This document shows, piece after piece, positions 8,532 to 59,179 of a stretch of DNA of 64,000 bases. The position numbers were made by a program, and so were the translations under genes. The notes under the pieces were generated by a model. The model did no database searches, was not told the origin of the DNA, and was given only the letters and a program-made list of their open reading frames with translations. The number at the start of each line of letters is the position of its first letter. The stretch's first letter is position 1. The stretch comes from Comamonas sp. (GTDB lineage Bacteria > Pseudomonadota > Gammaproteobacteria > Burkholderiales > Burkholderiaceae_C), in NCBI GenBank assembly GCA_015478895.1, contig JADMKK010000024.1, positions 37,803 to 101,802 on the forward strand, in the 5' to 3' direction.

Positions 8532-8611
8532 AGAGCTGCATGCCCTTATAAATGCTTGATTTCAGCTATTAAAGTAGCTGAAAGCGAGGTTTGGTGACGG
8601 CATGTAGCTAT
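8532..8611. repeat. 80-bp palindromic element, copy 1
   Basis: AGAGCTGCATGCCC...ACGGCATGTAGCTAT ends; inner TTCAGCTA/TAGCTGAA. Confidence 0.8.
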
Positions 8612-8617
8612 CAAAAT

Positions 8618-8649
8618 AAAAGCCCGCCAGCTTTGCAGCCAACGGGCTT
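8618..8649 (-). terminator. Probable terminator after gltA
   Basis: AAGCCCG...CGGGCTT stem with T-run on the minus strand. Confidence 0.55.
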
Positions 8650-8686
8650 GGTCGCCACCGAGCTGCCGTAACGGCAGCCGAAGTGA

Positions 8687-9997
8687 TTAACGCTGGGCCA
8701 TAGGCTTGACGTCGCGGGCCACCGAGCCGGTGAACAGCTGGCGAGGACGGCCGATCTTGTACTCAGGGTCACCCATTTGCTCGTTCAGCTGGGCAATCCA
8801 GCCTACAGTGCGTGCCAGTGCGAAGATGCCGGTGAACAGGTTCACTGGAATGCCGATGGCGCGCTGCACGATGCCGGAGTAAAAGTCCACATTGGGGTAG
8901 AGCTTGCGCGAGACGAAGTAGTCGTCTTCCAGTGCAATCTTTTCTACTTGCTTGGCCAGCGCGAACAATGGATCGTTTTCCAGACCCAGTTCTTGCAGGA
9001 TTTCGTTGCAAGTTTCTTGCATCAAGGTCGCGCGTGGATCGTAGTTCTTGTAGACGCGGTGGCCAAAACCCATCAGCTTGACGCCGCTGTTTTTGTCCTT
9101 GGCTTTTTCCATGAACTCGCCCACCTTGGCAATGCCGCCATTGCGCTGGATTTCGTCGAGCATGTTCAAGCACGCTTCGTTGGCGCCGCCATGGGCAGGG
9201 CCCCACAGGCAGGCAACGCCGGCGGAAATCGCTGCGAAGGGGTTGGTGCCCGACGAGCCGCACAGGCGCACGGTGGAAGTCGACGCATTCTGTTCGTGGT
9301 CCGCATGCAGGATAAAGATGCGATCCAGGGCCTTTTCGACCACAGGGTTGACCTTGTATTCTTCACAAGGGTTGCCGAACATCATGCGCATGAAGTTGCC
9401 TGCATAAGACAGGTCATTCTTCGGGTACATGTAAGGCTGGCCGACGCCGTACTTGTAAGCCATGGACACCAGCGTAGGCATCTTGGCGATCAAGCGGATC
9501 GCGGCGATTTCGCGGTGCTCGGGGTTGGTGATGTCAGTGCTGTCGTGGTAGAAGGCCGACATGCCGCCGACCAAGCCTGTCAACACCGCCATCGGGTGCG
9601 CATCACGGCGAAAGCCACGCAGGAAGAACTGCATCTGCTCGTTGACCATGGTGTGCTGGGTCACGCGGTTTTCGAAGTCAGCCTTTTGGCTCTCGTTGGG
9701 CAGATCGCCGTACAACAGCAGGTAGCAGGTTTCCAGGAAATTGCAGTTCTTGGCCAGTTGTTCGATGGGGTAGCCACGGTACAACAACTCGCCTTTGTCG
9801 CCATCAATATAGGTGATGGCCGACTGGCAAGCCGCCGTAGAGAGGAAGCCCGGGTCATAGGTAAACATGCCCGATTGGCCGTACAGCTTGCGGATGTCAA
9901 TCACATCCGGGCCGACGCTGCCTTGATAGACCGGCAGATCAACGCTGGGCGCGCCGTTGCTAAATGACAGGGTTGCTTTGTTATCAGCGAGTTTCAT
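8687..9997 (-). CDS. gltA: Citrate synthase (type II)
   Basis: [35 protein letters not shown]. Confidence 0.98.
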
Positions 9998-10058
9998 TTC
10001 CAACTTCCTTCTCGGAGTGGCCAGCATCTAAGGCCGGCCTTTTTTGCAAGCTGTGTCG

Positions 10059-10334
10059 TCAAACGGGCTTGCGCACCATTTGCAACACTTCTCTAACTTC
10101 TGGGGTGTCTAAGGACTCTTCGGGCTCCTTGCGTCGCAAGAAGAGATCCATCAGATCGTTGTCTGCCAAATCGTTCAGGGCAGCCAGACCAATTGCGTGT
10201 CTCCGCGTCAATTGGCTGCCATGGTTGGCAAAAAATTGCTCGAGGTACAGGTCGTTTTCGACCAAGCCACGGCGGCTGCGCCACCGTAGCAAGTCGCGTT
10301 CCTTCTCGTCGAGGAGTGCGTCTCGATCGCTCAT
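10059..10334 (-). CDS. sdhE: Succinate dehydrogenase FAD assembly factor SdhE
   Basis: LRWRSRRGLVENDL (RRG-x-x-E-x-D motif); position within the sdh operon. Confidence 0.92.
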   Translation of the reverse strand: MSDRDALLDEKERDLLRWRSRRGLVENDLYLEQFFANHGSQLTRRHAIGLAALNDLADNDLMDLFLRRKEPEESLDTPEVREVLQMVRKPV

Positions 10335-20585: not shown

Positions 20586-21332
20586 TTATTTTTGAATGTA
20601 GAGAATGCGGCTCTTATCGCTGCCTTCACTTTCTTCTGTCACTAAATAGGTGATTGCACCAATTTTGTAAGCGCTTACCTTCATATTCCAGCCATCAATA
20701 GTCACGCCGCTGGGATTGAAAGCTTGCTGGAATTGGGAAGCACTCAGTGTGTTGCCGTCGACAGAGATGCTGCCGTCTTGCTTTACTTGCAAGTCTTCCA
20801 TACCGTCTAGACCGCCCTGCTGGCAGTTATGACCACGGAAGGTCTTGCCCAACGAATCGGCTAACGTTGCGGTGGCTGCAGTATTTTGCAATGCGATATT
20901 GGTGCTGCTACTGCTAGTGTTTGTGCACAAAAGCAGCACTGCACCGTTGCCAAAATACCTTGCGCCGCCATTTAGGCCGCTCCAAGTAGCGCCACCATCG
21001 GCAGTGAATGTGGCTTTGACCGGAGAGCCGTTGATAACCGTAGAGGCCGTTGAACCTGCAGCGCCCAGCGCGCCGTCTACATGCACATCAATGATCGAAG
21101 TCTGGTTGTTCTGGCCGAACAACTTGTACTGCACCACAGTCGCTGTAGGTGTTGTGGGCTCCGTAGGATTTGTTGGCTCAGTAGGAGTTATTGGTGTTGT
21201 TGGCTCCGCAGGAGTGATTGGGGCCGTTGGCTCGGCAGGGTTTGTAGTTGTATTGTCATCGCCACCGCCACATGCGGTCAAAGCAGCCACGGCTATAGCA
21301 ATCAAAGATAAGTTCAAAATGCGAGATTTCAT
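20586..21332 (-). CDS. Orphan lipoprotein with Pro/Thr/Glu repeat stalk
   Basis: Lipobox LTA-C(21) followed by GGG, repeat linker and beta-rich C-terminal domain; RBS GGAGG upstream; AT-rich flanks. Confidence 0.85.
   Translation of the reverse strand: MKSRILNLSLIAIAVAALTACGGGDDNTTTNPAEPTAPITPAEPTTPITPTEPTNPTEPTTPTATVVQYKLFGQNNQTSIIDVHVDGALGAAGSTASTVINGSPVKATFTADGGATWSGLNGGARYFGNGAVLLLCTNTSSSSTNIALQNTAATATLADSLGKTFRGHNCQQGGLDGMEDLQVKQDGSISVDGNTLSASQFQQAFNPSGVTIDGWNMKVSAYKIGAITYLVTEESEGSDKSRILYIQK
21144..21239 (-). repeat. Coding tandem repeat P[AT]EPT[ATN]P(IT)
   Basis: PAEPTAPIT PAEPTTPIT PTEPTN PTEPTT PT in the lipoprotein. Confidence 0.85.
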
Positions 21333-21547: not shown

Positions 21548-22420
21548 TCAGTTTTGCTCAGCAAGTAGTTGCTGCAGAGTTTTTACCTGCAAGCGTAAAC
21601 GCTCGTTCTCGGCTTCTAGAGCAGTTATTTTGACTTGCATCTCCGAAATAGAAGCTACTGGTGCAGTTTCTATAGTTTCATCGCTATCTATATGCAGTTT
21701 TTCTGTTTTAGGTTTTTTCTTCGAATCACGCACGCGTTTGGCGGCTTGTTTGAGGCCTTCGCCACCTTCGGCAGCCACGGCTTGTTGTTCTTCCATAGAA
21801 AGGGTCGCAACAACCGCGGCCGCATTGAGCGACAACTCGCCGGCTTTTACAGCTGCCACCACTTCGGGCGCAGCTTTTTGCTGGATGGTCTCAATCATCT
21901 TGACTTGGCCGGCTGAAAGCCGGGCAGCGCGCGCCAAGGCTTCGCGGGTGTCCAGCGCTGCGTCGGGCACTTTGGGGCTGTTGGCCAACGCGGCGGCCAC
22001 AGCGGGGTCGGTATCGCCTTCCCAAGGGGCTTCGGTGCTGGCGGAGTCGGCTTTGGCTGCATTCACGGCAGCGGCGGCTGCAGCGCGCCGTTCAGCGATG
22101 ATTTCGCGCTTGCGCAGGGCCAGCACGCCGCGCTGGAAGTCGGAGACCGAGCGGCGGCCCAGGTGCTGGTCAATCATCCACAGGTGGATGTCTTCCATGT
22201 TCTGAAAACGCTCATTCTGAATGGTGTTAAACGGCAGGCCATGCTTTTGGCAGATGCCGTAGCGGTTGTGGCCATCGACCAAAATATTGCCCCACAGCAC
22301 CAGCGCGTCGCGGCAGCCTTCGTCCAGGATGCTGCGCTCCAGCGATTCGTATTCGTCGGTGGTGAGCGGGTCGATATAGGCCTTCAATTCAGGCAGAACC
22401 ACAATTTCTTCGTTGCTCAT
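21548..22420 (-). CDS. ParB/Spo0J-like N-terminal domain protein
   Basis: IDPLTTDEY...LERSILDEG, LVDGHNRY (ParB DG-x-x-R motif), HTH-like middle region, C-terminal coiled coil; start set at ATG 22420 because the track start overlaps a terminator. Confidence 0.8.
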   Translation of the reverse strand: MSNEEIVVLPELKAYIDPLTTDEYESLERSILDEGCRDALVLWGNILVDGHNRYGICQKHGLPFNTIQNERFQNMEDIHLWMIDQHLGRRSVSDFQRGVLALRKREIIAERRAAAAAAVNAAKADSASTEAPWEGDTDPAVAAALANSPKVPDAALDTREALARAARLSAGQVKMIETIQQKAAPEVVAAVKAGELSLNAAAVVATLSMEEQQAVAAEGGEGLKQAAKRVRDSKKKPKTEKLHIDSDETIETAPVASISEMQVKITALEAENERLRLQVKTLQQLLAEQN

Positions 22421-22442
22421 GACAGTCCAATCTTGCAAAGTC

Positions 22443-22464
22443 AAAAGGCACCCGAGGGTGCCTT
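22443..22464 (-). terminator. Terminator downstream of trhP
   Basis: AAGGCACC-CGAG-GGTGCCTT with T-run on the minus strand. Confidence 0.65.
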
Positions 22465-22497
22465 CCGTATCAGGCCTGAAGAGGCCTGTTAAAAAAT

Positions 22498-22577
22498 ATA
22501 GCTACATGCCGTTATCAATGCTTGATTTCAATATGAAAACTCTCTGAAAACAAGCAAGTACAACGGCCTGGTGCTAT
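22498..22577. repeat. 80-bp palindromic element, copy 2
   Basis: ATAGCTACATGCCGTT...AACGGCCTGGTGCTAT ends; inner TGCTTGATTTCA/TGAAAACAAGCA. Confidence 0.8.
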
Positions 22578-22585
22578 GAATAGCT

Positions 22586-24046
22586 TTAAGCAGCTTCGGT
22601 GGGAACCAGCAGGCGCGAGATCAACGCGCCATCTACGGGGCCTTCGACCGGAATGCGCACGCGCACGGGGTTGCCGGCGGCCACTTGCACAGGTTCGCCT
22701 GTCAGGTTGAACATCTGCTCCAGCTTGACGGTGCGGTTGCCCGTGGGGTGGATGATTTCGAGGGTGTCGCCCACCGAGAAGCGGTTCATGGTTTCGATTT
22801 CAGCCATACCGTTTTCGTAGCCACGCACCTGGCCCACAAAGTGGCTGCGTTGCAGCACCGAGTGACCGGTTTCGTAATTCTGGTAGTCGTTGGCGGGGCG
22901 GCGCTCCAGCAGGCCGCCGGTGTAGCCGCGGTTGGCCAGGCCTTCCAGCTCGGTGATCAGCGCGGGGTTGAACGGGCGGCCAGCCACGGCGTCGTCAATC
23001 GCGCGGCGGTAGGTTTGCGCGGTACGGGCCACGTAGTACAGGCTTTTGGTACGGCCTTCAATCTTGAGCGAATCGACACCAATTTTGGCCAAGCGCTCGA
23101 CGTGCTCAACGGCGCGCAAGTCCTTGGAGTTCATGATGTAGGTGCCGTGCTCATCTTCCATGATGGGCATCATTTCGCCGGGACGACCTTTTTCTTCCAG
23201 CAGGTAGATGGCGTCGGCCTTGGGGTGGCGCTTTTGGTCACCACAGGTGCTGGTGAACTGGTTGTCCAGATCGTTTTTGGCGTCTTCAAAGTTGAAGCCG
23301 TTTTCCATGGTCTGGCCCAATGCTTCGCCGGTGTTGGGGTCGACGTTGGCATCGTGCGTCTTGTAGTCCCAGCGGCAGGCATTGGTGCAAGTGCCTTGGT
23401 TGGGGTCGCGGCGGTTGAAGTAGCCCGACAGCAAACAACGGCCCGAGTAGGCAATGCACAGCGCGCCATGCACAAACACTTCAATTTCCATGTCGGGGCA
23501 TTCCTGGCGGATCTTTTCGATCTCATCCAAGGACAGCTCGCGCGACAAGATGATGCGCGAGACGCCCATCTTCTGCCAGAACTTGACGGTGGCGTAATTG
23601 GTGGTGTTGGCCTGTACCGAGAGGTGAATTTCTTGCTCGGGCCACTTTTCCTTGACCATCATGATCAAGCCAGGGTCGGCCATGATCAGCGCGTGGGGCT
23701 TGAGCTCAATGATGGGCTCGATGTCGCGCAGGTAAGTGCGGATCTTGTCGTTGTGCGCAATCAGGTTGCTGGTGACAAAAAACTTCTTACCACGCTGGTA
23801 GGCTTCCTGGATGCCTTGCGCAATTTGTTCCACACGGAATTCATTGTTGCGCGCTCGCAGGGAGTAGCGGGGCTGGCCGGCATAGACAGCATCGGCGCCA
23901 AAGTCATAGGCGGCGCGCATCTTCTCGAGCGAGCCGGCGGGAAGCAGCAGTTCAGGGGCTTTCATAGGGGGCTTATTTTCCTCGATTGCTGCATGCGCGT
24001 CATGCAGTGTCAACATGGCCTGCTCGTCGTATGGGTCGTGGCGCAC
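22586..24046 (-). CDS. trhP: U32 family tRNA 5-hydroxyuridine modification protein TrhP (YegQ)
   Basis: APELLLPAG, GADAVYAG, HGALCIAYSGRCLLS, CTNACRW, SLKIEGR; start uncertain. Confidence 0.93.
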   Translation of the reverse strand: MRHDPYDEQAMLTLHDAHAAIEENKPPMKAPELLLPAGSLEKMRAAYDFGADAVYAGQPRYSLRARNNEFRVEQIAQGIQEAYQRGKKFFVTSNLIAHNDKIRTYLRDIEPIIELKPHALIMADPGLIMMVKEKWPEQEIHLSVQANTTNYATVKFWQKMGVSRIILSRELSLDEIEKIRQECPDMEIEVFVHGALCIAYSGRCLLSGYFNRRDPNQGTCTNACRWDYKTHDANVDPNTGEALGQTMENGFNFEDAKNDLDNQFTSTCGDQKRHPKADAIYLLEEKGRPGEMMPIMEDEHGTYIMNSKDLRAVEHVERLAKIGVDSLKIEGRTKSLYYVARTAQTYRRAIDDAVAGRPFNPALITELEGLANRGYTGGLLERRPANDYQNYETGHSVLQRSHFVGQVRGYENGMAEIETMNRFSVGDTLEIIHPTGNRTVKLEQMFNLTGEPVQVAAGNPVRVRIPVEGPVDGALISRLLVPTEAA

Positions 24047-24048
24047 GC

Positions 24049-24462
24049 TTACGATTTGGGCAGCACCAGGCTTTTGCGAACGCCGTCAATCTCATAGCTA
24101 ATTTCGCGCTTGGATATTTCCACCAGATTTCCACCATTGGGCAGGCGGCTGCCAATCGCAAAGTTTTTGGCGTTGTCGCCAGATATCTGAATCAGGGCCC
24201 GCGATTGCGATGGAATATTTGAAAACACAATACCTTGCAGCCGCATGGAATCATTCTGCGAAGGGCCAGTTTGCGGCTGGAGCGTAGTGGCTGGTTTTTG
24301 AAAAAGATGGGCGATATCTGCCTGCGTATAGGTAGCTGAATCGATATTGCCAATATGATTTAAAGCTTCTATGGGTGGTGTGCGTAATGACAGTAAAAAT
24401 CCAGCCGCGACAAAAGCAGTCAAACTCCACAGCGAAAAACAGGTGATTTGCGGGAACTTCAT
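24049..24462 (-). CDS. gspC: T2SS protein C-like (single TM plus HR domain)
   Basis: N-terminal TM, MRLQGIV...ALIQ...FAIG pattern of the GspC HR domain; divergent from gspG. Confidence 0.7.
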   Translation of the reverse strand: MKFPQITCFSLWSLTAFVAAGFLLSLRTPPIEALNHIGNIDSATYTQADIAHLFQKPATTLQPQTGPSQNDSMRLQGIVFSNIPSQSRALIQISGDNAKNFAIGSRLPNGGNLVEISKREISYEIDGVRKSLVLPKS

Positions 24463-24568
24463 GGCGTATTCAATGGAAAATATAGGCCTGAATATACGCA
24501 AGCGGGAACGCTGGCTCATCAAGTATTTAGGCGGTCGCGTGAATTTAATCGAACAGCGAGAGGTTCTG

Positions 24569-24991: not shown

Positions 24992-25004
24992 GCCTCGATA
25001 GCGG

Positions 25005-27386: not shown

Positions 27387-27471
27387 TGGTGCCGCCTTTC
27401 ACTTTCAATATGGCCACGCAGGGCATGCGTATGCTGCCTATCAAAGAGGTGATTCGTGCAAGAGAGGGTAT

Positions 27472-35810: not shown

Positions 35811-35944
35811 GCGGGCGAATGAGGTAGTGAAAGACAGGCGCTGCAGCGCCCAACGCCTGCAGTTTATGCAAGCACACCCGCATTGGCACGCACGTTGGTG
35901 ATAGGGCTGTCAGGCAGTAGTGAATTCTGTAGCTATCTAAAAAT

Positions 35945-36024
35945 ATAGCTGCTGGCCCTTAAAGAAAAAGGGTTGCAGATAGATAACTATCTGAAAACGT
36001 TTATAGATAACGGCAAGCTGCTAT
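35945..36024. repeat. 80-bp palindromic element, copy 3
   Basis: ATAGCTGCTGGCCC...ACGGCAAGCTGCTAT ends; inner CAGATAG/CTATCTG. Confidence 0.8.
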
Positions 36025-36030
36025 AAAAAT

Positions 36031-36114
36031 TTAGTCTTGCGGGCGGAAACCGGTCAGGAAGTCGGGCGGCACCTTGCCATTGGTGTCGCGCGGCAAGGTA
36101 TCGGTGGTGTGCAG
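36031..36114 (-). pseudogene. tolA: Displaced 3' fragment of tolA (27 codons plus stop)
   Basis: LHTTDTLPRDTNGKVPPDFLTGFRPQD versus intact TolA end LHKTDTLPRDTNGKVPSEFLIGFRPQD. Confidence 0.9.
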
Positions 36115-38812: not shown

Positions 38813-38861
38813 AAATTAAGGCCGCACTGCTGCGGCTTTTCAATTGCTTGTAAAGAAGAAC

Positions 38862-41155: not shown

Positions 41156-41245
41156 GTGAACAGAGGCTGTAGCCACTGCGCTGCAGTCCATTCTTTTTTG
41201 TCTTCAAGCACAGACACTGTGCCCCTATTGGACCGAGCTTGCCCC

Positions 41246-43342
41246 ATGACATACCAGTCTCTTGATCCTTTGTTTTCCCCGGCATCCATTGCCGTGATTG
41301 GCGCCTCTTCTGACCCGCGCAAGATTGGCGGACGTCCCATTGCCTATATGTTGCGCAGTGGTTATGCCGGCAAAATTTTGCCGATTAACCCCAAACAGTC
41401 TGAAATTCAGGGGTTGCCAGCTTTCGCCTCTTTGGCGGCTGTGGGCCATCCTGTGGACCAAGTGATCGTGGCAGTGTCCGGAGCCTTGGTAGAAGGCGCG
41501 GTAGAAGAAGCACTGGCGCAGCAGGCGCGCTCGATTGTGATTTTCAGCTCCGGGTTCGGCGAAGTCGGACATGAAGGCAAGCAAAAGCAGGAGGAGCTGG
41601 CGCGTCGCTGTGCTGATGCAGGTGTGCAATTGGTTGGCCCCAATTGCATCGGCATTTTCAGCACCCGTAATGCCATGTATTCCACCTTCATGAGCGCTTT
41701 AGAGCACGAAATGTTTGAGCCTGGCAATGTGGGTATCGTGAGCCAGAGTGGTGCTATTGGCTCTTACCTCTACGGCCTGGCAGGTGACCGTGGTGTGCGT
41801 TTCAGCCACTTTGTGGCAACGGGCAATGAAGCTGGTGTGGACGTAGCGGCCTGCATCGAGTGGATGGCACACGATCCCAATACCAAGGTGATCTTGGCCT
41901 ATCTGGAAGGTTGTCAAGATGGCTACCGGCTGCGCAATGCCTTAGAGACTGCACGCCAGCAACGCAAGCCCGTGGTGGTCATGAAAGTCGGCGCGTCTGA
42001 GCAAGGTGCTGCAGCTGCCGCCTCTCACACAGGGTCACTGGCAGGCGCTGATGTGGTGTTTGACAGCGTTTTTAAGGAGTGCGGTGCTTGGCGCGCTCAG
42101 ACCATGGAAGAGCTGGTGGATATTGCCTATGCCTGTTCTATCTCCGTGCTGCCCCATGGCAATCGACTGGGCGTTATCACGCCATCGGGTGGGATTGGTG
42201 TCATTGCTGCTGACGAGTGTGAGCGCAGTGGTCTGGTGCTGCCGCATTTGCCAGAGAAGTTGCAGGCAGAGATCAAGTCCATCGTGCCGTTTGCCAGTGG
42301 TGTGAACCCGGTCGACACGACCGGACAGGTTGTTAGCGATCGTCAGCTCTTCAACAAGATCATGAAGATCGTGTTTGAGTTCGACGGCTTTGACAGCATT
42401 CTGAGTTTTAACGCCAACATTGGAAAAACAGAGATTGAGTGGGGCAAGGTGCGGGATGATCTGCTGGCGTTACGTCGCCAGCACCCCGAGAAATTGGTGG
42501 CGCTGAGCATGCGTTCTGCTCCCGAAGTGGTGAAGGAACTGGAAGATCACCAGATCCTTTACTTTTCGGATACGGCCGTGGCGACGCGCACCATCGGTGC
42601 CTTGGCATGGATTGCTCAGGCCCAGCAGTGGCCCGCCATGTCCGTGCCTGCCGCTGCACCTGCCCAGGCTGCGCTGCAATGGTCCGAAGCGGCCATTGAT
42701 GAAGCGCAGGCGCGCCAGATTTTGGAGGTAGCTGGCATTCCTTTTGCCCCGCAGAAAGTGGTCGACAGTGCCCAGGCTGCGGCCCAGGCGGCTGCAGAAA
42801 TGGGCTTTCCCGTGGTGATCAAGGTGCTGTCGCCGGACATTGCTCATAAGAGCGATGTAGGTGGCGTGCTGCTGAATCTGGCTACGGAACAAGAGGTGTT
42901 GGAGGGCTGGAAACGCATGATGGACCAGGTGCACAGCCATTGTCCGGATGCACGTCTGCAAGGCGCGGTCGTGTCGCCGATGATCAAAGGTGGCACGGAA
43001 ACTGTATTGGGCATGGTCAATGACCCCGTCTTTGGCCCCATGGTCATGTTTGGTCTGGGCGGTATCTTTGTAGAAATTTTCAAGGATGTGAAGTTCCACA
43101 CTGCGCCGCTGAACATGGCCCAAGCCCAGACAATGATCAGCTCCATCAAGGGCTTTCCTTTGCTCGACGGCGCGCGTGGCAAACCAAAAGCCGATGTGCA
43201 TTGCCTGGCCCAGGCGCTGGTCAGCCTGTCTAACTTTGTATTTGACAATGCCGCCGACTTGGCCAGCGTAGAAATCAATCCTTTTATCGCCTTGCCGCAG
43301 GGCGGTTACGCCGTGGACGCGCTGATTATTCGTCGCAGCTAA
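41246..43342 (+). CDS. ADP-forming acyl-CoA synthetase (acetate-CoA ligase family, fused subunits)
   Basis: IAVIGAS CoA-binding domain, GPNCIG, ASHTGSLAG (phospho-His), HKSDVGGV ATP-grasp, EINP. Confidence 0.93.
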   Translation: MTYQSLDPLFSPASIAVIGASSDPRKIGGRPIAYMLRSGYAGKILPINPKQSEIQGLPAFASLAAVGHPVDQVIVAVSGALVEGAVEEALAQQARSIVIFSSGFGEVGHEGKQKQEELARRCADAGVQLVGPNCIGIFSTRNAMYSTFMSALEHEMFEPGNVGIVSQSGAIGSYLYGLAGDRGVRFSHFVATGNEAGVDVAACIEWMAHDPNTKVILAYLEGCQDGYRLRNALETARQQRKPVVVMKVGASEQGAAAAASHTGSLAGADVVFDSVFKECGAWRAQTMEELVDIAYACSISVLPHGNRLGVITPSGGIGVIAADECERSGLVLPHLPEKLQAEIKSIVPFASGVNPVDTTGQVVSDRQLFNKIMKIVFEFDGFDSILSFNANIGKTEIEWGKVRDDLLALRRQHPEKLVALSMRSAPEVVKELEDHQILYFSDTAVATRTIGALAWIAQAQQWPAMSVPAAAPAQAALQWSEAAIDEAQARQILEVAGIPFAPQKVVDSAQAAAQAAAEMGFPVVIKVLSPDIAHKSDVGGVLLNLATEQEVLEGWKRMMDQVHSHCPDARLQGAVVSPMIKGGTETVLGMVNDPVFGPMVMFGLGGIFVEIFKDVKFHTAPLNMAQAQTMISSIKGFPLLDGARGKPKADVHCLAQALVSLSNFVFDNAADLASVEINPFIALPQGGYAVDALIIRRS

Positions 43343-43389
43343 CGTGCAGCGGTGCAGAAGGCCTCCTGGCCGATGACACCGCTTCCATC

Positions 43390-43426
43390 AACAAAAAGGG
43401 CACTTTCTGAGAGTGCCCTTTTTGTT
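43390..43426. terminator. Bidirectional terminator inside the island
   Basis: AACAAAAAGGGCACT...AGTGCCCTTTTTGTT between convergent genes. Confidence 0.88.
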
Positions 43427-43465
43427 GCGTGCAAATGTCGAGGAACTAAATGCTTGGCCGCTACT

Positions 43466-44326
43466 TTAAGCGGCAGGGGCAATCGTGGCCCATCCGTTGT
43501 CCAGAACCTTGGCACCACGTTCTTGTGCAAATGCACGAAAGGCGATGCCGTCGCCTTCATGCCACGTCTCAAATTGCAATGTTTCTCCGGGAAAAACGCT
43601 GGCAGAAAAACGTGTATCCAGCGACAGCAGACGCTGCGGGGCGTAATCCAGCCAGCCTTTTAACAACGCACGTGCAGCCATGCCGTAGGTGCACAGACCA
43701 TGCAGTGGTGGTTGTGTGAAACCCGCTTTGTGTGCCACGGCTGGGTCCACATGCAAGGGGTTACGGTCCACATTCAAGCGATACAGCAATGCGGCACATG
43801 CTGAGGTTGGCAGGGTAATGATTTGATCTGCGGGCCGTGTGGGCAAGGCCTTGAGCGTCAGCGTTTCGCCGAAGGAGCCACAGCCACCATCGGCTCTGCA
43901 AAACGAAGAGTGCCGGATGGTAATAAACAGCGTGCCGTCTTCGCCAACGAGCTGGCGCTCAAGATGCAAGATTGCCCCTTTTTCGCTGCCCTTGTCCTGA
44001 ATGCCAATGACGCGTGCCTTGGAGACTAGGTAGCCATTGGCAGGCAGCGGCTGATGGAACTGCATGCGTTGCTCGCCATGCACCACCTTACTGCGAGTTG
44101 CGCCCGTGCGCGGGTCTGTCAGCCAGGCACCGGGATGGCACAGCACGGCACCCATGGTGGGAACCGCGCGCAATTGTTGCTCATAAACAAAAGGCAGCTC
44201 CTGCTCGTTCAGTGGATCAGCACCAAAGCCCAGGCTCAACGCGTACAGCATGACATCTTTGTCAAGGTACACCGTGCGGACCTCTGGGAACTCCCAATTT
44301 TTCAGGTTTTCAATATGCAGTGGCAT
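43466..44326 (-). CDS. MaoC double-hot-dog (R)-specific enoyl-CoA hydratase
   Basis: VVHGEQ, YRLNVDRNPLHVDP hydratase-2 motif, PPLHGLCTYG. Confidence 0.92.
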   Translation of the reverse strand: MPLHIENLKNWEFPEVRTVYLDKDVMLYALSLGFGADPLNEQELPFVYEQQLRAVPTMGAVLCHPGAWLTDPRTGATRSKVVHGEQRMQFHQPLPANGYLVSKARVIGIQDKGSEKGAILHLERQLVGEDGTLFITIRHSSFCRADGGCGSFGETLTLKALPTRPADQIITLPTSACAALLYRLNVDRNPLHVDPAVAHKAGFTQPPLHGLCTYGMAARALLKGWLDYAPQRLLSLDTRFSASVFPGETLQFETWHEGDGIAFRAFAQERGAKVLDNGWATIAPAA

Positions 44327-44383
44327 CGTCGTAAAGCGCAAAAAGGCCTGTACAGGCCTTTGGTGGATGGAAGGGAGAAAGAA

Positions 44384-45307
44384 TTAAATGGCTTCCCAGG
44401 AAATCACATCCTTGGTGCGCTCCAGGGGCGTCAAACTGTTCTTGAATGCATTCGGGAGCGTCTGTGCAATTGAGTCCACCGACCAGCCTTCACTGCGGTG
44501 CAAAGTGCGTGTGGGGCGGGGTTGGTTGTAGAGGTAAATTTCATTGCCGCGTGCGCCAAAAATCTGACCGCTGATGGTTTTTGCTGCGTCAGCGCACAAA
44601 AAGGCCGCCAGCGGTGCAATCTGCTCGGGGCGTGTGCTCTGGCGGCGTTTTTCCAGGTATTTTTCTTGCTCTTGCGGCGACAGACCTGGCACGCTTTCGA
44701 TCATGCGGCTGAATGCATGGGGGGCAATGCAATTGGAGCGCACGCCAAAACGTGCCATGTCCATCGCCATGGAGCGCGACAGTCCCACAATGCCCATTTT
44801 GGCTGCGGCATAGTTCGCCTGACCAATGCCACCGATTAATCCGGAGGTCGACGTCATATGTACCAACGCACCTGCGCCTTGTTCACGGAAATGCACTGCG
44901 GCTGCACGGCTCATATTGAACGCGCCATACAAATGCACTTTGATGACGGAGTCGAAATCACTGGGTGTCATCTTGTGAAAAATCGAATCCCGCAAAATGC
45001 CAGCGCTGTTGACTACGGCATCCACGCGGCCAAATGCTGTGATGGCAGCGGCAATGATGGCTTCTGCGCTGTCCCACTCGGAGACGCTGAGCGTGTTGGC
45101 GATGGCTTTACCGCCAAAAGCGGTGATCTCATTGACCACTTCTTGCGCAGCAGACAGTTTTTCCTGCTCGCCATTGAGCGAAACACCCAGGTCATTGACA
45201 ACCACCTGCGCGCCTTCTTTGGCCAGCTCAATGGCTACGCTGCGGCCAACGCCGCCGCCAGCACCGGTAACGACGACAACTTTGTCTTGGAGAGATGGAG
45301 TGTTCAT
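44384..45307 (-). CDS. SDR oxidoreductase (MFE-2-like 3-hydroxyacyl-CoA dehydrogenase type)
   Basis: TGAGGGVG, VVVNDLG, NSAGILRD, YAAAK catalytic motif. Confidence 0.93.
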   Translation of the reverse strand: MNTPSLQDKVVVVTGAGGGVGRSVAIELAKEGAQVVVNDLGVSLNGEQEKLSAAQEVVNEITAFGGKAIANTLSVSEWDSAEAIIAAAITAFGRVDAVVNSAGILRDSIFHKMTPSDFDSVIKVHLYGAFNMSRAAAVHFREQGAGALVHMTSTSGLIGGIGQANYAAAKMGIVGLSRSMAMDMARFGVRSNCIAPHAFSRMIESVPGLSPQEQEKYLEKRRQSTRPEQIAPLAAFLCADAAKTISGQIFGARGNEIYLYNQPRPTRTLHRSEGWSVDSIAQTLPNAFKNSLTPLERTKDVISWEAI

Positions 45308-45464
45308 ATCTTATGGAGTAAGTGCGAATGAAAGCTTCACGCCAGTGGCGCTGTGTGAGGCCATTCTTGCGTTTCGCTGACCCGGGCATGCAGCGAAAAA
45401 GTCATAATGCTTTACAAAAAATCAATTCTTGAAGCCCATCGCGCAGACCGGAGTACCCCTCACC

Positions 45465-46355
45465 ATGAAGATGCCGCCCCTTAATCCACTGCACGTGTTT
45501 TCCATCGTGGCGCGGCACCAAAGCCTGCTGACTGCGGCGCAGGTTCTGGGGGTGACACAGTCCGCAGTCAGACGCCAGATTTCATCGTTGGAAGATTATT
45601 ACGGCTGCAAACTTTTCAAAAGAAAACGATACGGTTTAGAAGTTTTACCTTTTGCGCAAGACTTGGCGAAAGAAGTGGCGGGGGCATTTGAATTAATTGA
45701 GCAGCAATCAGAAAAATTAAAAAAATCGCTAGAAAAAAATATCAATGAAGTCACTATTAAAACTTACACAAGTTTTGCTGGTAACTGGTTGATTCCTAAT
45801 CTCAGTGAGTTTTTTGCCTTGCATCCTGAAATAAAAATCGTAATTAAAACTGGAGCCAAGCCCATTGATTTTCGAGAAAATGAGGGTGATATTTCTATTC
45901 AAATCATTAATCATGATAAAAATGGCTATCAATCGACACTTTTGTTTGAGGATACTATTGAGCCTGTGTGTTCACCAGAATTTCTCAAGAAATATGCTCC
46001 CAATCCCAAGTACCCATCGTCCATACTAAGACAGCCTGTCATTACGACGGATTATCGAGATTTTGACTGGAACACCTGGGTCGATCAATGTGGCTATCAA
46101 GAAGACTTTAAACCAGACAGAAGTTTGAATCTTGGTAATGCTTTGCTGGCTTGGGATGCAGCTGCCAATGGTATTGGTGTGGCCATGGGGCAAACCATAC
46201 TGTTAAAAGAGAAAATTAAAAATAACAGATTAACTACGCCATTTAATTTGCCTGTGAAAACAGGTATGAAATACTATGTCATTTTGCCTGAGAAAAATGC
46301 GAAGGCTGGGGCATTGATTTTCAAGGAATGGTTATTGAAGAAGTTTTTGTTTTAA
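45465..46355 (+). CDS. LysR-family regulator (GcvA-like), AT-rich
   Basis: HTH LGVTQSAVRRQISSLE, LFKR, WLIPNLSEF; divergent from the SDR gene. Confidence 0.92.
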   Translation: MKMPPLNPLHVFSIVARHQSLLTAAQVLGVTQSAVRRQISSLEDYYGCKLFKRKRYGLEVLPFAQDLAKEVAGAFELIEQQSEKLKKSLEKNINEVTIKTYTSFAGNWLIPNLSEFFALHPEIKIVIKTGAKPIDFRENEGDISIQIINHDKNGYQSTLLFEDTIEPVCSPEFLKKYAPNPKYPSSILRQPVITTDYRDFDWNTWVDQCGYQEDFKPDRSLNLGNALLAWDAAANGIGVAMGQTILLKEKIKNNRLTTPFNLPVKTGMKYYVILPEKNAKAGALIFKEWLLKKFLF

Positions 46356-46430
46356 TGTGGAATAAATTTACTGTATTTAAATGATATGTTGGTTAAAAGC
46401 TTTGGCTGAGGTAGAAAAAATAAAAAATTC

Positions 46431-46510
46431 ATAGCAGCATGCCGTTAAAGAAAAAGGGTTTCAGATACTTATCTATCTGAAACCCTTGATACGTGCCGGC
46501 AAGCCGCTAT
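46431..46510. repeat. 80-bp palindromic element, copy 4
   Basis: ATAGCAGCATGCCG...CCGGCAAGCCGCTAT ends; inner AGGGTTTCAGATA/TATCTGAAACCCT. Confidence 0.8.
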
Positions 46511-46600
46511 AAAAGTTTAGTCTTGTGGGCGGAAACCGATCAGGAACTCGGATGGCACCTTGCCATTGGTGTCGCGTGGCAAGGTATCGGTTTTGTGCAG
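46431..46600. repeat. 170-bp direct repeat, right copy (80-bp element copy 4 plus functional tolA 3' end)
   Basis: Aligns without gaps to 35945..36114. Confidence 0.95.
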
Positions 46601-47656
46601 CGCGCGCACCACGGCGTCGTCCCAGGCTTTGTTGCCGCTCGATTGCACCAGCTGCACGCCGGTGATCGTGCCATCGGGCGCAGCGCGCACGCGCACTTCA
46701 GCCCGCGGGTTGCCGCTGACCATGTCGGGGTAGACGATGTTGGGCTTGACCTTGGCCGCCACTTTGGCGCCGTAGCCGGCAGAGTGGCCCGCTGTGCCGC
46801 CGCCTGTGCCCTTGCCACCGTTGGGGCCGCTGCTTTTTTCAGCAGAACCGGTTCCGCCAGAACCAGCCTGAGCAGCCATGTTCTTCAGGTTTTCCTGGCG
46901 CATGCGCTCCAGTTCCTTGGCGGCCTTGGCATCTTTGGCGGCTTGTTCTTTCTTGCGTTTGTCGTCCGCAGCTTTCTTTTCTGCAGCCAGCTTGGCGGCT
47001 TTTTCTTTCTCCAGCTTCTCTTTTTCGCGTTTTTCCTTCTCGGCTTTTTCGCGCTTTTCTTTTTCTAAGCGGTCTTTCTTCTGCTGCTCCGCTTTGTCGC
47101 GCTTTTGTTGCTCCAGCTTGTCTTTGCGTTCCTGCTCGGCCTTGTCCTTGCGCGCTTGTTCAGCCTTTTCTTTTTCGAGCTTGGATTGCTCCGCTTTTTC
47201 CGCTTTTTCTCGCTCGGCCTTTTCTTTGGCTTTTTGCGCGGCAAGCTCGCGCTGCTTTTGCTCGGCTTCCTGCTTTTTGCGTTCTTGCAAAGCAATTTCG
47301 GCATCACGCTCAGCTTGCAGTTCTTGCTGCGAAGGCTGGGGTGGAGCCGGTGGTGGCGGCAAGGGGACGGGTTCCGGTTCTGGTTCGGGCTCCGGTGTCG
47401 GCTCCGGCTCCGGTATGGGCTCTGGTTCTGGGGCGGGCTGGGGCACTGGCACAGCCGCGCGCGGTGCCGCCTGCACAAAGGTGTCGCTCCACAGCTCCGC
47501 TTCGACAGCGGCCTGCTCGACGGCCACGGGTGGACTGACTTTCCACATGAAAGCGCCTACCAGCACGGCGTGAGCCAGCAGTGCCAGCACCCAGTTGCGC
47601 AGACGCTTGGACGGGCGGGGCGGGGCAAAGGGGTCTTGGTCTAGGCGAGAGTGCAT
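46517..47656 (-). CDS. tolA: Tol-Pal protein TolA
   Basis: N-terminal TM with HAVL, PEPEP tract, Lys/Glu/Ala helix, TonB-C-like domain (SSGNKAWDDAV). Confidence 0.93.
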   Translation of the reverse strand: MHSRLDQDPFAPPRPSKRLRNWVLALLAHAVLVGAFMWKVSPPVAVEQAAVEAELWSDTFVQAAPRAAVPVPQPAPEPEPIPEPEPTPEPEPEPEPVPLPPPPAPPQPSQQELQAERDAEIALQERKKQEAEQKQRELAAQKAKEKAEREKAEKAEQSKLEKEKAEQARKDKAEQERKDKLEQQKRDKAEQQKKDRLEKEKREKAEKEKREKEKLEKEKAAKLAAEKKAADDKRKKEQAAKDAKAAKELERMRQENLKNMAAQAGSGGTGSAEKSSGPNGGKGTGGGTAGHSAGYGAKVAAKVKPNIVYPDMVSGNPRAEVRVRAAPDGTITGVQLVQSSGNKAWDDAVVRALHKTDTLPRDTNGKVPSEFLIGFRPQD

Positions 47657-55501: not shown

Positions 55502-55534
55502 ACGACAGAAAGCCAACGCAGTGCTCTTGAAAAA

Positions 55535-55614
55535 GGAGCTGCATGCCATTGTGATTGCTGAATATCAAGTGCTTTTAAGCCTGAAGTCCAGTCAATTCAA
55601 GGGCATGCAGCTCC
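55535..55614. repeat. 80-bp palindromic element, copy 5
   Basis: Perfect 18-bp IR AAAAAGGAGCTGCATGCC / GGCATGCAGCTCCTTTTT spanning 55530..55619; may also act as gshA terminator. Confidence 0.82.
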
Positions 55615-55671
55615 TTTTTTGATTCCAGAAGTCGTCCATCTGTCATTGCACTGTCATGGTATTGACACTTT

Positions 55672-57297: not shown

Positions 57298-57380
57298 TCT
57301 CGATATTCAGATTTCATATGGCCGTGGCCCATCTGGGCTACGCTTGTTGTAAAGCCTTTCCATTGTCTGGAGAGGATTTT

Positions 57381-58457
57381 TTATGCCACTTTCATCTTGG
57401 CCAGAGCAGGCTGCATGAAACCTGAGGTTGCCATGGTTTGGCCGTCATCGAACATGACGCTGCGCTCCGGCCAGCGCAGGGCTGCGAGCTTGAGGTGCTG
57501 CTGCGGCCGATTAAAAGTACGCGCTTGGGCGCGTGCGCCGACGGAGTAGTCCACGCAAAACACATTGCCGCGCTGGCCGTGCCATGCCATGGGTGCAACA
57601 CCGCTGAACAGTCCTTCTTGCGTGGTCTGGCTGGGCAAGGTGCTGCGCCAGTAGTGGCCAACGACGACCGGTGTTGTTTCCGTGTAATCGTCCCACCACG
57701 CCATACGTTCGACAAAGCGCCATTTATTGCCGGCAAAAAAAGGCTGCTGCGCTTTGCGCTCAAGGCCGCAGGTCAGGACTTTGAGCGGGTTAAAGGTGGC
57801 TTTATTGAGTTCGTTGTCGCAGTGGGCTTGCAAAAACGGGGGGCGCTGCTGGCCGTCTTCAAGGCTATGGGGCCAGATGTGGTGCTCGGCCTGCATGCGG
57901 TCGGCGATCAGCCGCTCCCGGGCGACGGCCGTGGCCTGGTTCTCCCAGTGGTCATATTCAGTGCGGGCACTTCCCAGAGACATGCCCCGCGCTTTCTGGA
58001 CATCGGGCGCGTGCCAGGCGGCGTGTATGACGCGGATGTCAGAGCGCTCCAGCGCCAGCGGTAGAGCGTTTAAGAATGCTTCGATGCGCGCACGTTGCAA
58101 GGTATTGGTGACGCAGGCGAACTGGCTGTATTTGCCCAGATCGCTCTCTAAACGCTCAGGGAAAAACCAGCCGGAGCCGTCCTTGGGGTCGTGGCGCAGC
58201 AGATTGATTTCATGGTTGCCGGTGATCGCACACGCGTTGCCTGCTTCCACCAATCGCTGCACCAGATCCACCACGCCGGGGCTATCAGGGCCGCGATCTA
58301 CAAAATCGCCCACAAACACCAGCGTGCGGTGCTCGGGGTGTCTGCCCTGTGCGTCATAGCCGAGGTGGCCCAGCAATTGCTGCAACGCTTGCAGCTCACC
58401 GTGGATGTCTCCGACGATGTCAAGTGGGCCAGTTGGCAGGGATTGGATGAGACTCAT
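57381..58457 (-). CDS. Calcineurin-like (PPP family) metallophosphoesterase
   Basis: GDIHG, GDFVDRG and GNHE motifs; later VVGHYW and CVDYS. Confidence 0.9.
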   Translation of the reverse strand: MSLIQSLPTGPLDIVGDIHGELQALQQLLGHLGYDAQGRHPEHRTLVFVGDFVDRGPDSPGVVDLVQRLVEAGNACAITGNHEINLLRHDPKDGSGWFFPERLESDLGKYSQFACVTNTLQRARIEAFLNALPLALERSDIRVIHAAWHAPDVQKARGMSLGSARTEYDHWENQATAVARERLIADRMQAEHHIWPHSLEDGQQRPPFLQAHCDNELNKATFNPLKVLTCGLERKAQQPFFAGNKWRFVERMAWWDDYTETTPVVVGHYWRSTLPSQTTQEGLFSGVAPMAWHGQRGNVFCVDYSVGARAQARTFNRPQQHLKLAALRWPERSVMFDDGQTMATSGFMQPALAKMKVA

Positions 58458-58578
58458 GGCACGTTTTCATTAAGCAAGACGGGCCGCACGACAATGAATC
58501 AGCAGCGGACGAACGGACCATGTTGTTGCAATGCAGCAATATCGTCAACCTGTCGCTGTCACCTAGTTGTGACAGGTA

Positions 58579-59070
58579 TTAACGCTTATGCGTGTAGCGC
58601 ACAAAGCTAAACGCCAGCCCCTTGGCGCTGACAAGATCCTCGCGTGCGCTGGCTTGCCATTCGGGGCCCAACTCGGGCGCAAAGGCATCGCCCTCATAGT
58701 CCTGGTGGATCACCGTCATTTCCACCACGTCCGCCAGCGGCAGGGCCTGGGCGTAGATTTGCGCCCCGCCCATCACCCAGACGGTGTCGCCGTGTTTGGC
58801 ACCGTGTTGCAGGGCTTCTGGCAGGCTGCTGGCGCGCAGCACGCCTTCAGCGCTCCAGTCGGCATTGCGTGTGACCACAATATTCGTGCGGCCGGGCAGG
58901 GGGCGAAAGCGCTCCGGCAGTGAATCCCAGGTTTTGCGGCCCATGACCACGGGGTTGCCGCTGGTCAACTTTTTGAAGTGGGCCAAATCCTCGGGCAGAT
59001 GCCAGGGCATGGTGTTGTTCAAACCAATCACGCCATTGGCGGCGCGGGCATAAATCAGGTGAATGGCCAT
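58579..59070 (-). CDS. folA: Dihydrofolate reductase
   Basis: MPWHLPEDL, VMGRKTW, PLPGRTN, MGGAQIY. Confidence 0.97.
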   Translation of the reverse strand: MAIHLIYARAANGVIGLNNTMPWHLPEDLAHFKKLTSGNPVVMGRKTWDSLPERFRPLPGRTNIVVTRNADWSAEGVLRASSLPEALQHGAKHGDTVWVMGGAQIYAQALPLADVVEMTVIHQDYEGDAFAPELGPEWQASAREDLVSAKGLAFSFVRYTHKR

Positions 59071-59099
59071 GGAGCAAGCAATGAAGCGTTATAAAAAAG

Positions 59100-59179
59100 A
59101 GAGCTGCTTGCCCTAGGTATTCATAGACTTTAAATAGGTTGGTATCTGAAGTGCTTGAATTACCACGGCAAGTAGCTCT
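59100..59179. repeat. 80-bp palindromic element, copy 6
   Basis: AGAGCTGCTTGCCC...ACGGCAAGTAGCTCT ends, between thyA and folA. Confidence 0.8.

Follow-up and report, generated by a model that had tools for sequence, protein, structure and literature searches.

The Correia elements (CREE) of Neisseria are palindromic intergenic repeats of ~100–150 bp with no known cognate transposase. They come in several length classes, carry an internal IHF site, and have 26-bp terminal inverted repeats and a TA duplication. On transcription they form hairpins in the mRNA, and they have been reported as terminators and RNase III targets. Canonical intrinsic terminators have stems of 5–14 bp and loops of 3–8 nt and do not form sequence families. 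DNA uptake sequences (DUS) are 10–12-mers that are over-represented genome-wide, including in coding DNA, and inverted pairs of the Neisseria DUS (...GCCGTCTGAA) act as terminators. RAYTs (Y1 HUH, PF01797) are usually single-copy and typically flanked by their repeats. REP units are 20–40-bp G+C-rich palindromes with a GT[AG]G tag (PMC2817692, table), and as of 2010 no other betaproteobacterium had a counterpart of the RAYT of Thauera, itself a betaproteobacterium (PMC2817692). ERIC/IRU, RUP, and BOX-type families are variable in length or modular, and many have target duplications or a known parent IS (PMC3184786, PMC10969869).

Here, we analyzed six palindromic elements in a 64,000-nt stretch of Comamonas sp. 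DNA (the window). They resemble the REPINs of Pseudomonas and Enterobacteria, which are ~100-bp extragenic inverted doublets folding into a long hairpin (PMC3116915, PMC2817692), in their high copy number (6 per 64 kb), their lack of a target-site duplication, their mostly vertical inheritance and lasting presence at the same sites, their lineage-specific sequence variants, and a hairpin conserved through compensatory changes. Likewise, two inverted units make up one hairpin of ~70–110 nt, symmetric about an exactly central axis in 46 of 46 copies. They differ from REPs in that the Comamonas unit is a single 76–100-nt A+T-rich hairpin instead of a short G+C-rich palindrome, that its arms are not self-contained REP hairpins, and that the outer tag is G[T/C]AGCT instead of GT[AG]G, with GTAG or CTAC in only ~40% of arms. 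With Correia elements they share a betaproteobacterial host, a palindromic intergenic character, a similar size, and the lack of a known cognate transposase, whereas they have one length, no detectable duplication, and ends that appear dissimilar to the Correia consensus. They are also small, non-coding, hairpin-forming, intergenic, often co-transcribed, and lineage-restricted, as are ERIC/IRU, RUP, and BOX (PMC3184786, PMC10969869), but are of fixed length with no detectable duplication. We consider it somewhat probable (roughly 0.55) that the six copies are members of a Comamonas-wide, non-autonomous palindromic repeat family, REPIN/MITE-like in nature, that doubles as a 3′-UTR hairpin or terminator.

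An earlier note on this DNA had placed near-palindromes at positions 8532, 22498, 35945, 46431, 55535, and 59100, and all six were located there. A degenerate pattern (the ends and CTGAA at fixed spacing) matched only these loci on both strands, with 0.00 matches expected from 100 shuffles. A regular expression with variable gaps (30–140 nt) also returned only six matches in the window, every one with 76 nt from AGC to GCT, and no lone half-sites in its intergenic DNA. The covariance model, run with filters off, revealed no seventh copy in the window; the next match scored 16.7 bits versus at least 63 bits for the six, all of which are intergenic. CTGAA does occupy element positions 47–51 in all six, and the four complementary inner-arm pairs quoted previously are all present. 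Its supposed TTCAG-like mirror is more exactly part of a symmetric TTTCAG...CTGAAA motif, of which CTGAA is the 3′ half. Since the motif is symmetric and only four copies are informative, the presence of CTGAA on the + strand in six of six window copies is no meaningful asymmetry. The ATGCCGT at the element end, the internal CTGAA, and the location downstream of genes give the elements a superficial likeness to DUS. The possibility of a DNA uptake sequence was rejected, as words containing CTGAA show no over-representation in the window apart from the six elements; the commonest 8–12-mers of the window are unremarkable coding words rich in G+C.

The repeat unit is a module of ~100 bp consisting of an A-tract, RAK, a 76-nt core, MTY, and a T-tract. 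The core reads AGCWRCWKGCC ... TTTCAG-N12-CTGAAA ... GGCMWGNNGCT, and the family consensus 3′ of it is MTY and then TTTTT. The previously described length of 80 bp holds for the form defined by 76 nt between the anchors, but the palindrome continues through RAK/MTY into the A-tract and T-tract, to ~100 bp. The conserved basal stem of the core is G+C-rich and 11–13 bp long; above it come an internal loop that is mostly unpaired, an upper stem that covaries, and the TTTCAG/CTGAAA apex. This apical motif is on both arms in 20 of 34 pattern-selected copies and is missing from several copies found by the model only. The elements are A+T-rich, with a G+C content of 32–48% (57% in the genome). Copy 5 (55525..55624, + strand; core 55537–55612; z = −7.0), which lies 33 nt past the gshA stop and upstream of an MCP gene, has the fully symmetric form A5-GG-core-CC-T6.

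By combining a pattern scan with a covariance model, we collected 46 copies from at least eight genome sources, namely the window species, the MAGs JBJEZV01 and JADKLW01, L082, L084, L085 (Comamonas sp. Y33R10-2), L089, L090 (C. aquatica), and L092 (C. testosteroni group). Length was constant among the 46, including copies not selected by the defining pattern, and 45 of them have a distance of 76 nt between the AGC and GCT anchors. Elements are present in other species at the same sites at tolA, trhP, and thyA-folA, and these keep their length and pairing at ~66% identity: 49–52 of 76 positions are identical across species, yet 26–29 of 36 Watson–Crick pairs are kept, and of the pairs altered on both sides, 5/8, 6/7, and 3/5 are still paired in the respective comparisons. 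At the 15 pairs unselected by the pattern, covariation was 0.381, compared with 0.245 ± 0.022 in shuffled controls, none of 500 of which reached it, and 0.11–0.18 in slid controls. Covariation in a DNA palindrome could alternatively arise from templated repair between arms, not selection. The family is apparently undescribed, with no match in Rfam, plasmid or phage sequences, or the literature; its copies are dispersed and intergenic, and they are confined to a single lineage. The invariant length, covariation, same-site pairing, and this distribution support the idea, put forward in the earlier note, of a structure- or protein-recognized REP/MITE-like element.

RNA folding z-scores of the six window copies range from −4.3 to −10.0. 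One could take such stable, covarying predicted hairpins for stand-alone small-RNA genes or for cis-regulatory RNA motifs that work in a single orientation, a reading that we regard as very improbable. The sense strand had no advantage in folding energy (seven copies favor it, nine do not), sense-strand G·U pairs were not in excess over A·C mismatches (40 vs 47, p = 0.52), model scores were nearly equal on both strands, and no conserved promoter is associated with the elements. In addition, Rfam gave no window match at the gathering threshold, and copy 5 had only sub-threshold matches to generic hairpins (miRNA-precursor). The symmetry lies at the DNA level.

Outside the window, gene context was assigned with a crude ORF and GC3 gene caller. 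Among the 35 copies with both neighbors called, 16 are in convergent, 16 in tandem, and at most three in divergent context, one of the last being the duplicated copy 3 described below; six convergent spacers consist entirely of the element with its tracts. The stop-codon distances of 6–75 nt given for the window copies were correct (gltA, 75 nt; trhP, 8; tolA fragment, 6; tolA, 6; gshA, 33; thyA, 15). A U-run (at least five U within ~10 nt past the hairpin, on the upstream gene's strand) occurs in all six, which thus display the hallmark of an intrinsic terminator, a stable hairpin with a G+C-rich base followed by a U-tract, with an atypically long stem. A T-run is missing on one side in ~10 of 39 copies, and a few copies in tandem context lack the sense-side T-run. 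The A-tract, G+C-based hairpin, and T-tract, together with the location after a gene or between convergent genes, are reminiscent of bidirectional terminators, but the interrupted stem of ~35 bp is much longer than a canonical one and its sequence is common across loci. A 3′-UTR hairpin or terminator role would fit this anatomy.

The genome also has ordinary terminators, including ones directly beside copies 1 and 2. Copy 1 (8522..8621, − strand; core 8534–8609; 80-bp form 8532–8611; 81.8 bits) lies between gltA (stop 8687) and map (start 8398), both on the minus strand, and its sense-strand hairpin (z = −4.3) is followed by CUUAUUUUU. It adjoins the T-run of gltA's own, separate canonical intrinsic terminator (8612..8650, − strand), GCCCG...CGGGC and then UUUUAUUUU, which is kept in L085, L086, and L087, two of the three having no element at that site. 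An identical copy 1 is found on metagenome contigs L001 and L002. None of the metatranscriptome contigs spans the gltA-map spacer. Copy 2 (22488..22587, − strand; core 22500–22575; z = −6.3, followed by AUAUUUUUU) is 8 nt past the trhP stop and upstream of the native trhP terminator (22437..22465, − strand; GGCACCC-UC-GGGUGCC, then UUUUGACUUU), which is kept in L089 and L090. In the window and C. aquatica, the trhP element comes first and the native terminator second; in the C. testosteroni group it follows a different terminator, and in Comamonas sp. Y33R10-2 it is absent. Copy 6 (59090..59189, − strand; core 59102–59177; z = −6.5) lies 15 nt past the thyA stop in the thyA-folA spacer, which measures 124 nt in the window and L082, both of which have the element, and 48 nt in Diaphorobacter ruginosibacter, which lacks it. 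Given that gltA and trhP keep their own canonical terminators, which relatives have alone, that the thyA-folA spacer is 124 nt with and 48 nt without the element, and that the trhP element varies in position and is absent in one strain, the copies look like insertions, not terminators that arose in place.

These observations bear on the alternative that the elements are host-encoded terminators or 3′-UTR stabilizers that were never mobile, their resemblance having been produced by a shared selective factor (RNA polymerase/NusA, RNase III, or an RNA-binding protein) in combination with gene conversion and local duplication. This alternative would account for the placement at gene 3′ ends, the U-runs trailing all six window hairpins, the persistence at the same sites across species with stability within species, and the origin of one copy clearly by segmental duplication. 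Nevertheless, we judge it rather unlikely. Convergence does not yield the same 76-nt length and conserved 11–13-nt ends at dozens of loci unrelated to one another, pairing shows no sense-strand bias, the trhP site is occupied at differing positions across lineages, and the elements adjoin complete canonical terminators that relatives use alone, so that the elements are redundant at gltA and trhP. Under the preferred reading of a mobile repeat family, presence and absence at matching sites suggest that copies inserted at gene 3′ ends, often adjoining the T-run of an existing terminator, and would then have been inherited vertically for a long time, with selection keeping the exact length and hairpin. 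Judging from anatomy, a resident copy would be transcribed as the 3′ end of its gene, where it may serve as an intrinsic terminator, often a bidirectional one, or as a hairpin that protects the 3′-UTR.

The non-independence of copies 3 and 4, proposed previously, was borne out: both lie within a 170-nt direct repeat whose left (35945..36114) and right (46431..46600) members, each the element plus 90 nt of the tolA 3′ end, are 85% identical and flank a 10.3-kb catabolic gene cluster (36115–46430). Copy 4 (46421..46520, − strand; core 46433–46508; z = −10.0) is 6 nt past the tolA stop (46517) and convergent with a LysR gene (stop 46355); elements are also present at this site in L089 and C. aquatica L090. 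Copy 3 (35935..36034, − strand; core 35947–36022; z = −5.3) comes after the 90-nt tolA 3′ fragment and duplicates copy 4 including the flank, the left member starting exactly at the left end of the 80-bp element. This single duplication and the synteny breaks beside copies 2–4 suggest that the elements may serve as recombination hotspots.

As for the mode of movement, no target-site duplication of 2–8 bp was found at any offset in 38 copies, with nothing above shuffled controls. The base before the A-tract and that after the T-tract are not consistently T and A, which excludes a TA or TTAA duplication. The conserved inverted ends, MITE-like size, and dispersed intergenic distribution might suggest a classical MITE, that is, an internally deleted IS moved in trans by a DDE transposase that recognizes AGCTGCWTGCC terminal inverted repeats. 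However, the missing duplication makes this a slim prospect, as does the fact that the entire element, not its ends alone, is palindromic, that the window has neither a full-length partner nor lone intergenic half-sites, and that the length is invariant, whereas MITE families usually vary. Empty sites, for which the earlier note had suggested looking, do exist in distant relatives. Four other strains of the window species all retain copies 5 and 6, with contigs running gap-free across copy 5, and no recent movement was seen in this comparison. For the REPIN/MITE-like family favored here, a single-strand-DNA, HUH/RAYT-like route with a putative enzyme would be preferred over a DDE transposase because of the lack of a target-site duplication, the perfect two-fold symmetry, and the equal conservation of pairing on both strands; this is the most tentative step of our proposal. 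The window contains no cognate transposase, as previously noted, and tblastn with E. coli RayT and an IS200 TnpA sequence as queries detected no RAYT-/IS200-like ORF in the window and family-bearing loci (0.73 Mb, a few percent of each genome).

The element ends exhibit lineage-specific "dialects" that are common to copies at the same and at different sites: ..TKGCC/GGCMA.. in the window lineage and ..GCGC/GCGC.. in the C. aquatica and C. testosteroni lineages. Such variants would be expected if the elements co-evolve with a protein, and the elements might accordingly be sites where a host protein binds double-stranded or cruciform DNA, as gyrase, IHF, or Pol I bind BIMEs, or sites for a lineage-specific, structure-specific protein; the footprint of the protein would set the fixed length. 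The rigid spacing of the conserved base to the conserved tip and the same symmetry on both strands agree with this idea, which is compatible with, not exclusive of, the preferred explanation. Taken by itself, it appears improbable, as there is no known candidate protein, the IHF-like match (WATCAANNNNTTR) is confined to a minority subfamily, and the A/T tracts and the restriction to 3′ ends are left unexplained. Conceivably, albeit with rather low probability, the element is a domesticated, length-gauged module and not a selfish repeat: a lineage-specific protein would measure the fixed base-to-tip distance and co-evolve with the repeat, and the host would use a portable bidirectional terminator placed at gene ends. 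The putative protein may be an HUH enzyme of the RAYT kind, or a nuclease or binding protein with structure specificity, and same-site copies that switch dialect with the rest of the genome would follow from its co-evolution.

If the preferred reading is true, Comamonas carries a high-copy repeat that apparently no one has annotated, with a few hundred copies per genome by extrapolation from the window density. Two species of the genus, C. aquatica and C. testosteroni, have been widely sequenced from environmental and clinical isolates. The repeat would shape gene 3′ ends, sometimes constituting the whole spacer of convergent genes, and it interrupts short-read assemblies and occurs at synteny breakpoints. 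The covariance model could be used to annotate the elements and improve terminator and operon prediction in Comamonas. With its rigid length and lineage-specific end variants, the family offers a clean system for studying the maintenance of palindromic repeats and for finding out whether Betaproteobacteria have a REPIN-RAYT-like partnership. A domesticated, length-gauged module, if true, would represent a REPIN-like symbiosis of a novel sequence class in a group, the Betaproteobacteria, that seldom has RAYT systems.

The window carries six copies of a palindromic element, starting at positions 8532, 22498, 35945, 46431, 55535 and 59100 (copies 1–6), which the earlier note had described as REP/MITE-like, fixed in length, covarying and located at gene 3′ ends. 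Direct reading of the window found all six with the sequences reported there, and a degenerate pattern comprising the ends and CTGAA at fixed spacing, run on both strands, matched these six loci and no others, compared with 0.00 chance matches in 100 dinucleotide-preserving shuffles. The fixed length was also upheld: a regular expression that allowed 30–140 nt between the ends returned six loci only, each measuring 76 nt from the AGC anchor to the GCT anchor. When a covariance model built from family copies was run over the full window with the filters off, the six copies scored 63–82 bits, while the next-best match scored 16.7 bits, the weak matches being ordinary short terminators. The element is 33–41% G+C in these copies, and the window is about 57%. 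GC skew is positive throughout the window and CTGAA lies on the plus strand in 6/6 copies, a replication-orientation bias that is not significant because only four copies carry information and the family is symmetric in most of its members. We interpret the elements as a new REPIN/MITE-like palindromic family that is inserted at gene 3′ ends, has its length and hairpin under selection, and forms terminator-like 3′-UTR hairpins.

The 80-bp palindrome is real, but its extent had been underestimated: a 34-copy alignment and a 38-copy flank profile revealed that the symmetry continues beyond 80 bp. The module reads (T)T-x-AAAAA-RAK on the left, AGC-W-R-C-W-K-GCC-N-T-T-G ... TTTCAG-N12-CTGAAA ... 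C-A-A-N-GGC-M-W-G-N-N-GCT in the core, and MTY-TTTTT-A(A) on the right. The basal stem is G+C-rich and nearly invariant, an internal loop (alignment columns 29–32 and 69–72) is unpaired in most copies, and the upper stem is variable yet complementary, with a conserved tip. Both the A-tract and the T-tract are present in about 60% of copies; a minority, including window copies 1–4, is T-rich on both sides of one strand. As RNA in the sense of the upstream gene, each of the six window copies folds into a single long hairpin (z = −4.3 to −10.0 relative to shuffles), with a run of at least five U after it. Resident elements may act as terminators or as 3′-UTR stabilisers; the RNA data available were metatranscriptome contigs, of which none spans a spacer.

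The flanking genes are those previously named, and the stop-to-element distance is 75 nt for gltA, 8 nt for trhP, 6 nt each for the tolA 3′ fragment and tolA, 33 nt for gshA and 15 nt for thyA. Placement at 3′ ends holds across the family: both neighbours could be called for 35 copies, of which 16 occupy convergent, 16 tandem and at most three divergent spacers, one of the last being the duplicated copy 3, and the spacers of six convergent pairs consist entirely of the element with its tracts. The native intrinsic terminators of gltA (8612–8650, minus strand) and trhP (22437–22465, minus strand) lie directly beside copies 1 and 2, respectively. Both terminators are kept in relatives with or without the element, and copies 1 and 2 were therefore added rather than being the original terminators. 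A non-mobile family of host terminators explains the whole set of observations less well than the REPIN/MITE-like reading does. Two observations concern the neighbouring genes. Across Comamonas, trhP has the same neighbour on its downstream side, the conserved ORF X (21548–22444, minus strand, about 290 aa), and neither X nor a conserved ORF at 20586–21332 (minus strand) had a match in Pfam or NCBIfam. The longest thyA ORF (59195–60475, minus strand) encodes 426 aa, including an upstream extension of about 153 codons without a Pfam match; translation most likely begins at the Met giving a 273-aa protein, which can be aligned with thymidylate synthases over its whole length.

A pattern with variable gaps (±5 nt each), scanned against 185,579 species represented by a single genome each, returned 51 loci, six of which were family-like, all with the 76-nt core and all in the Comamonas sp. 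MAG JBJEZV01; the remaining loci were coincidences in coding sequences. A metagenome scan yielded 20 more loci, all 76 nt, in MAG JADKLW01 and two other contigs. The covariance model recovered further copies beyond the reach of the pattern, both in the scanned loci and in six loci of relatives that were fetched via neighbouring proteins (L082, L084, L085, L089, L090 and L092). The symmetry axis was exactly central in 46/46 copies, and the AGC and GCT anchors were 76 nt apart in 45 of them, the 46th having AGG in place of AGC; a degenerate relic after trhP in L089 is 75 nt long and scores below the model threshold. The ends differ among lineages, with ..TKGCC/GGCMA.. in the window species and the two MAGs, ..GCGC/GCGC.. 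in C. aquatica, the C. testosteroni group, L082, L084 and L089, and AGCAAGTAGTCC/GGACTAACTGCT in Comamonas sp. Y33R10-2. Members with the GCGC-type end lie on MAG scaffolds (L082, 10833–10932; L089, 9816–9915), in C. aquatica (L090, 9816–9915 and 11374–11473) and in the C. testosteroni group (L092, 11437–11536, without TTCAG/CTGAA), and the Y33R10-2 member (L085, 11450–11549) has an end of the AGTAGTCC type. Since the collection-wide pattern scans are blind to variant ends, the family is wider than those scans suggest. The plasmid and phage sequences searched held nothing similar to the element. Rfam has no matching family, and the full-text literature searched (subscription-only literature being outside its scope) describes no repeat of this kind for Comamonas or Comamonadaceae; the family appears to be new.

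The exact gltA protein of the window organism is recorded on metagenome contigs only, and near-identical DNA occurs in dairy, bovine and pig gut, and biogas or digester metagenomes. Among named relatives, Comamonas sp. Y33R10-2, C. antarctica and C. aquatica come closest, with proteins 92–93% identical. In an isolate-like run (X3), contigs fork inside copy 1, at 8541 and 8551, into other sequence (e.g., ...GTTCAGATAGTTTTAATG...), which is a signature of further copies elsewhere in that genome and shows that short-read assemblies are fragmented by the repeat.

The covariation claimed in the earlier note was borne out. Across the whole hairpin, 70.3% of cells paired, compared with 66.3 ± 0.8% in shuffles, and the covariation score was 0.207, compared with 0.155 ± 0.010. 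When the test was restricted to the 15 pairs left free by the search pattern, with 500 shuffles and slid controls, pairing was 66.7% versus 56.8 ± 1.7% and the score was 0.381 versus 0.245 ± 0.022; none of the 500 shuffles reached either observed value, and the slid controls scored 0.11–0.18. A subfamily difference in the upper stem (GCTTG:CAAGC versus CAAGG:CCTTG) supplies part of the signal. Same-site elements of different species provide the cleanest evidence: they are identical at 49–52 of 76 positions and keep 26–29 of 36 Watson–Crick pairs; most of the pairs altered on both sides still pair. With sense-strand assignments that rest on crude gene calls, the sense strand folded better in 7 and worse in 9 of the 16 tandem-context copies and had 40 G·U pairs versus 47 A·C mismatches (p = 0.52). 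As pairing is no better on the transcribed strand, the constraint on the hairpin appears to be symmetric and to apply to DNA or to both RNAs. A function in sense-strand RNA only was unsupported, there being no bias in folding energy or G·U pairs, and a small-RNA gene accounts for the observations as a whole less well than a REPIN/MITE-like family.

Comparison of shared sites gave a picture of old insertions, long vertical persistence and occasional independent gains near terminators. Between thyA and folA, the element is present at the same length in the window and L082 (ThyA protein identity 94%), and absent from the 48-nt spacer of Diaphorobacter ruginosibacter; L084 has an ordinary terminator there and a doubtful relic. 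At gltA, the window element adjoins the T-run of the native terminator, Y33R10-2 has a variant-end element 60 nt further along, and C. antarctica and L087 have none. The element lies 6–10 nt past the tolA stop codon in the window, L089 and C. aquatica. At trhP, the window and C. aquatica have it ahead of the native terminator and the C. testosteroni group has it behind a different native one; Y33R10-2 lacks it. These comparisons gave no sign of current activity, and no empty-site polymorphism was seen within the species at copies 5 and 6, both of which the contigs of four other strains cross gap-free.

Copy 3 arose by a 170-nt duplication whose left edge is the exact left end of the 80-bp element and which extends across the element into 90 nt of the tolA 3′ end, as far as ...GTGCAG. 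The two members of this direct repeat (35945–36114 and 46431–46600) are 85% identical, with a divergence of about 21% in the element part versus about 10% in the tolA part. They bracket a 10.3-kb catabolic cluster (36115–46430) encoding a TctC binding protein, a ChsH2-like OB-fold protein, a thiolase-like protein, two acyl-CoA dehydrogenases, an NDP-forming acyl-CoA synthetase, a MaoC hydratase, an SDR and a LysR regulator, an arrangement suggestive of integration or duplication by way of the element region. The order tolA–element–trhP–element–X–OYE, seen in L089 and C. aquatica, is ancestral and is broken in the window (21548–35810, compared with L089 and L090), where the breakpoints all adjoin copies 2, 3 or 4. 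There, trhP is separated from OYE by a type II secretion cluster comprising gspC (24049–24522), pseudopilin genes (24.4–27.4 kb), gspD (29899–32112), gspE (32121–33476) and gspF (33479–34702). The duplication and the order breaks, a single case, fit recombination or one-ended mobilisation at the element; the junction spacers around copies 2–4 had no similarity to those of relatives informative for reconstructing the rearrangements. Two further sets of repeats in the window are probably coding. Degenerate 24–57-nt tandem-like repeats inside tolA (46935–47242; D2 and D5) are probably not a separate element but code for the central domain, rich in Lys, Ala and Glu, that TolA typically has. A 45–52-nt motif occurring three to four times at 24586–25840 (D6 and D7) lies at the starts of consecutive ORFs between gspC and gspD and so probably codes for the prepilin-type N-terminus that successive type II secretion pseudopilins share.

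No target-site duplication (TA, TTAA or longer) was detectable in the 38-copy flank profile. The apparent 6–7-bp AT-rich direct repeats beside copies 1 and 3 fall within low-complexity T-runs and are not general, and an ISDra2-like TTGAT target was rejected since GAT belongs to the palindrome (RAK/MTY), not to the flank. As the earlier note had stated, the window lacks a cognate transposase; no RAYT- or IS200-like ORF was found there or in 0.73 Mb of family loci, which amount to a few percent of each genome. A REPIN/MITE-like family covers the full set of observations better than a DDE-type MITE, and its movement might follow a single-strand-DNA, HUH-type route with a putative enzyme. An array of protein-binding sites is likewise the poorer explanation of the whole. 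A match to an IHF site is confined to a subfamily. A DNA uptake sequence was considered for the resemblance of ATGCCGT...CTGAA to the Neisseria DUS and rejected, no CTGAA word being over-represented outside the elements. An integron attC site was also rejected: the element has the order GTT...AAC, attC has AAC...GTT, and the neighbouring genes are housekeeping genes.

REPINs are closest in behaviour to the Comamonas family. By sequence, REPs are defined as short units that are rich in G+C and tagged by GT[AG]G, a definition that the Comamonas element fails (PMC2817692). With Correia elements it shares the host class, the size, a transposase that is not known and likely RNA-level effects, but it differs from them in its ends, its lack of a TA duplication and its single length. 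This rigid length and the lineage dialects of the ends at shared sites are its unusual features and are worth pursuing.
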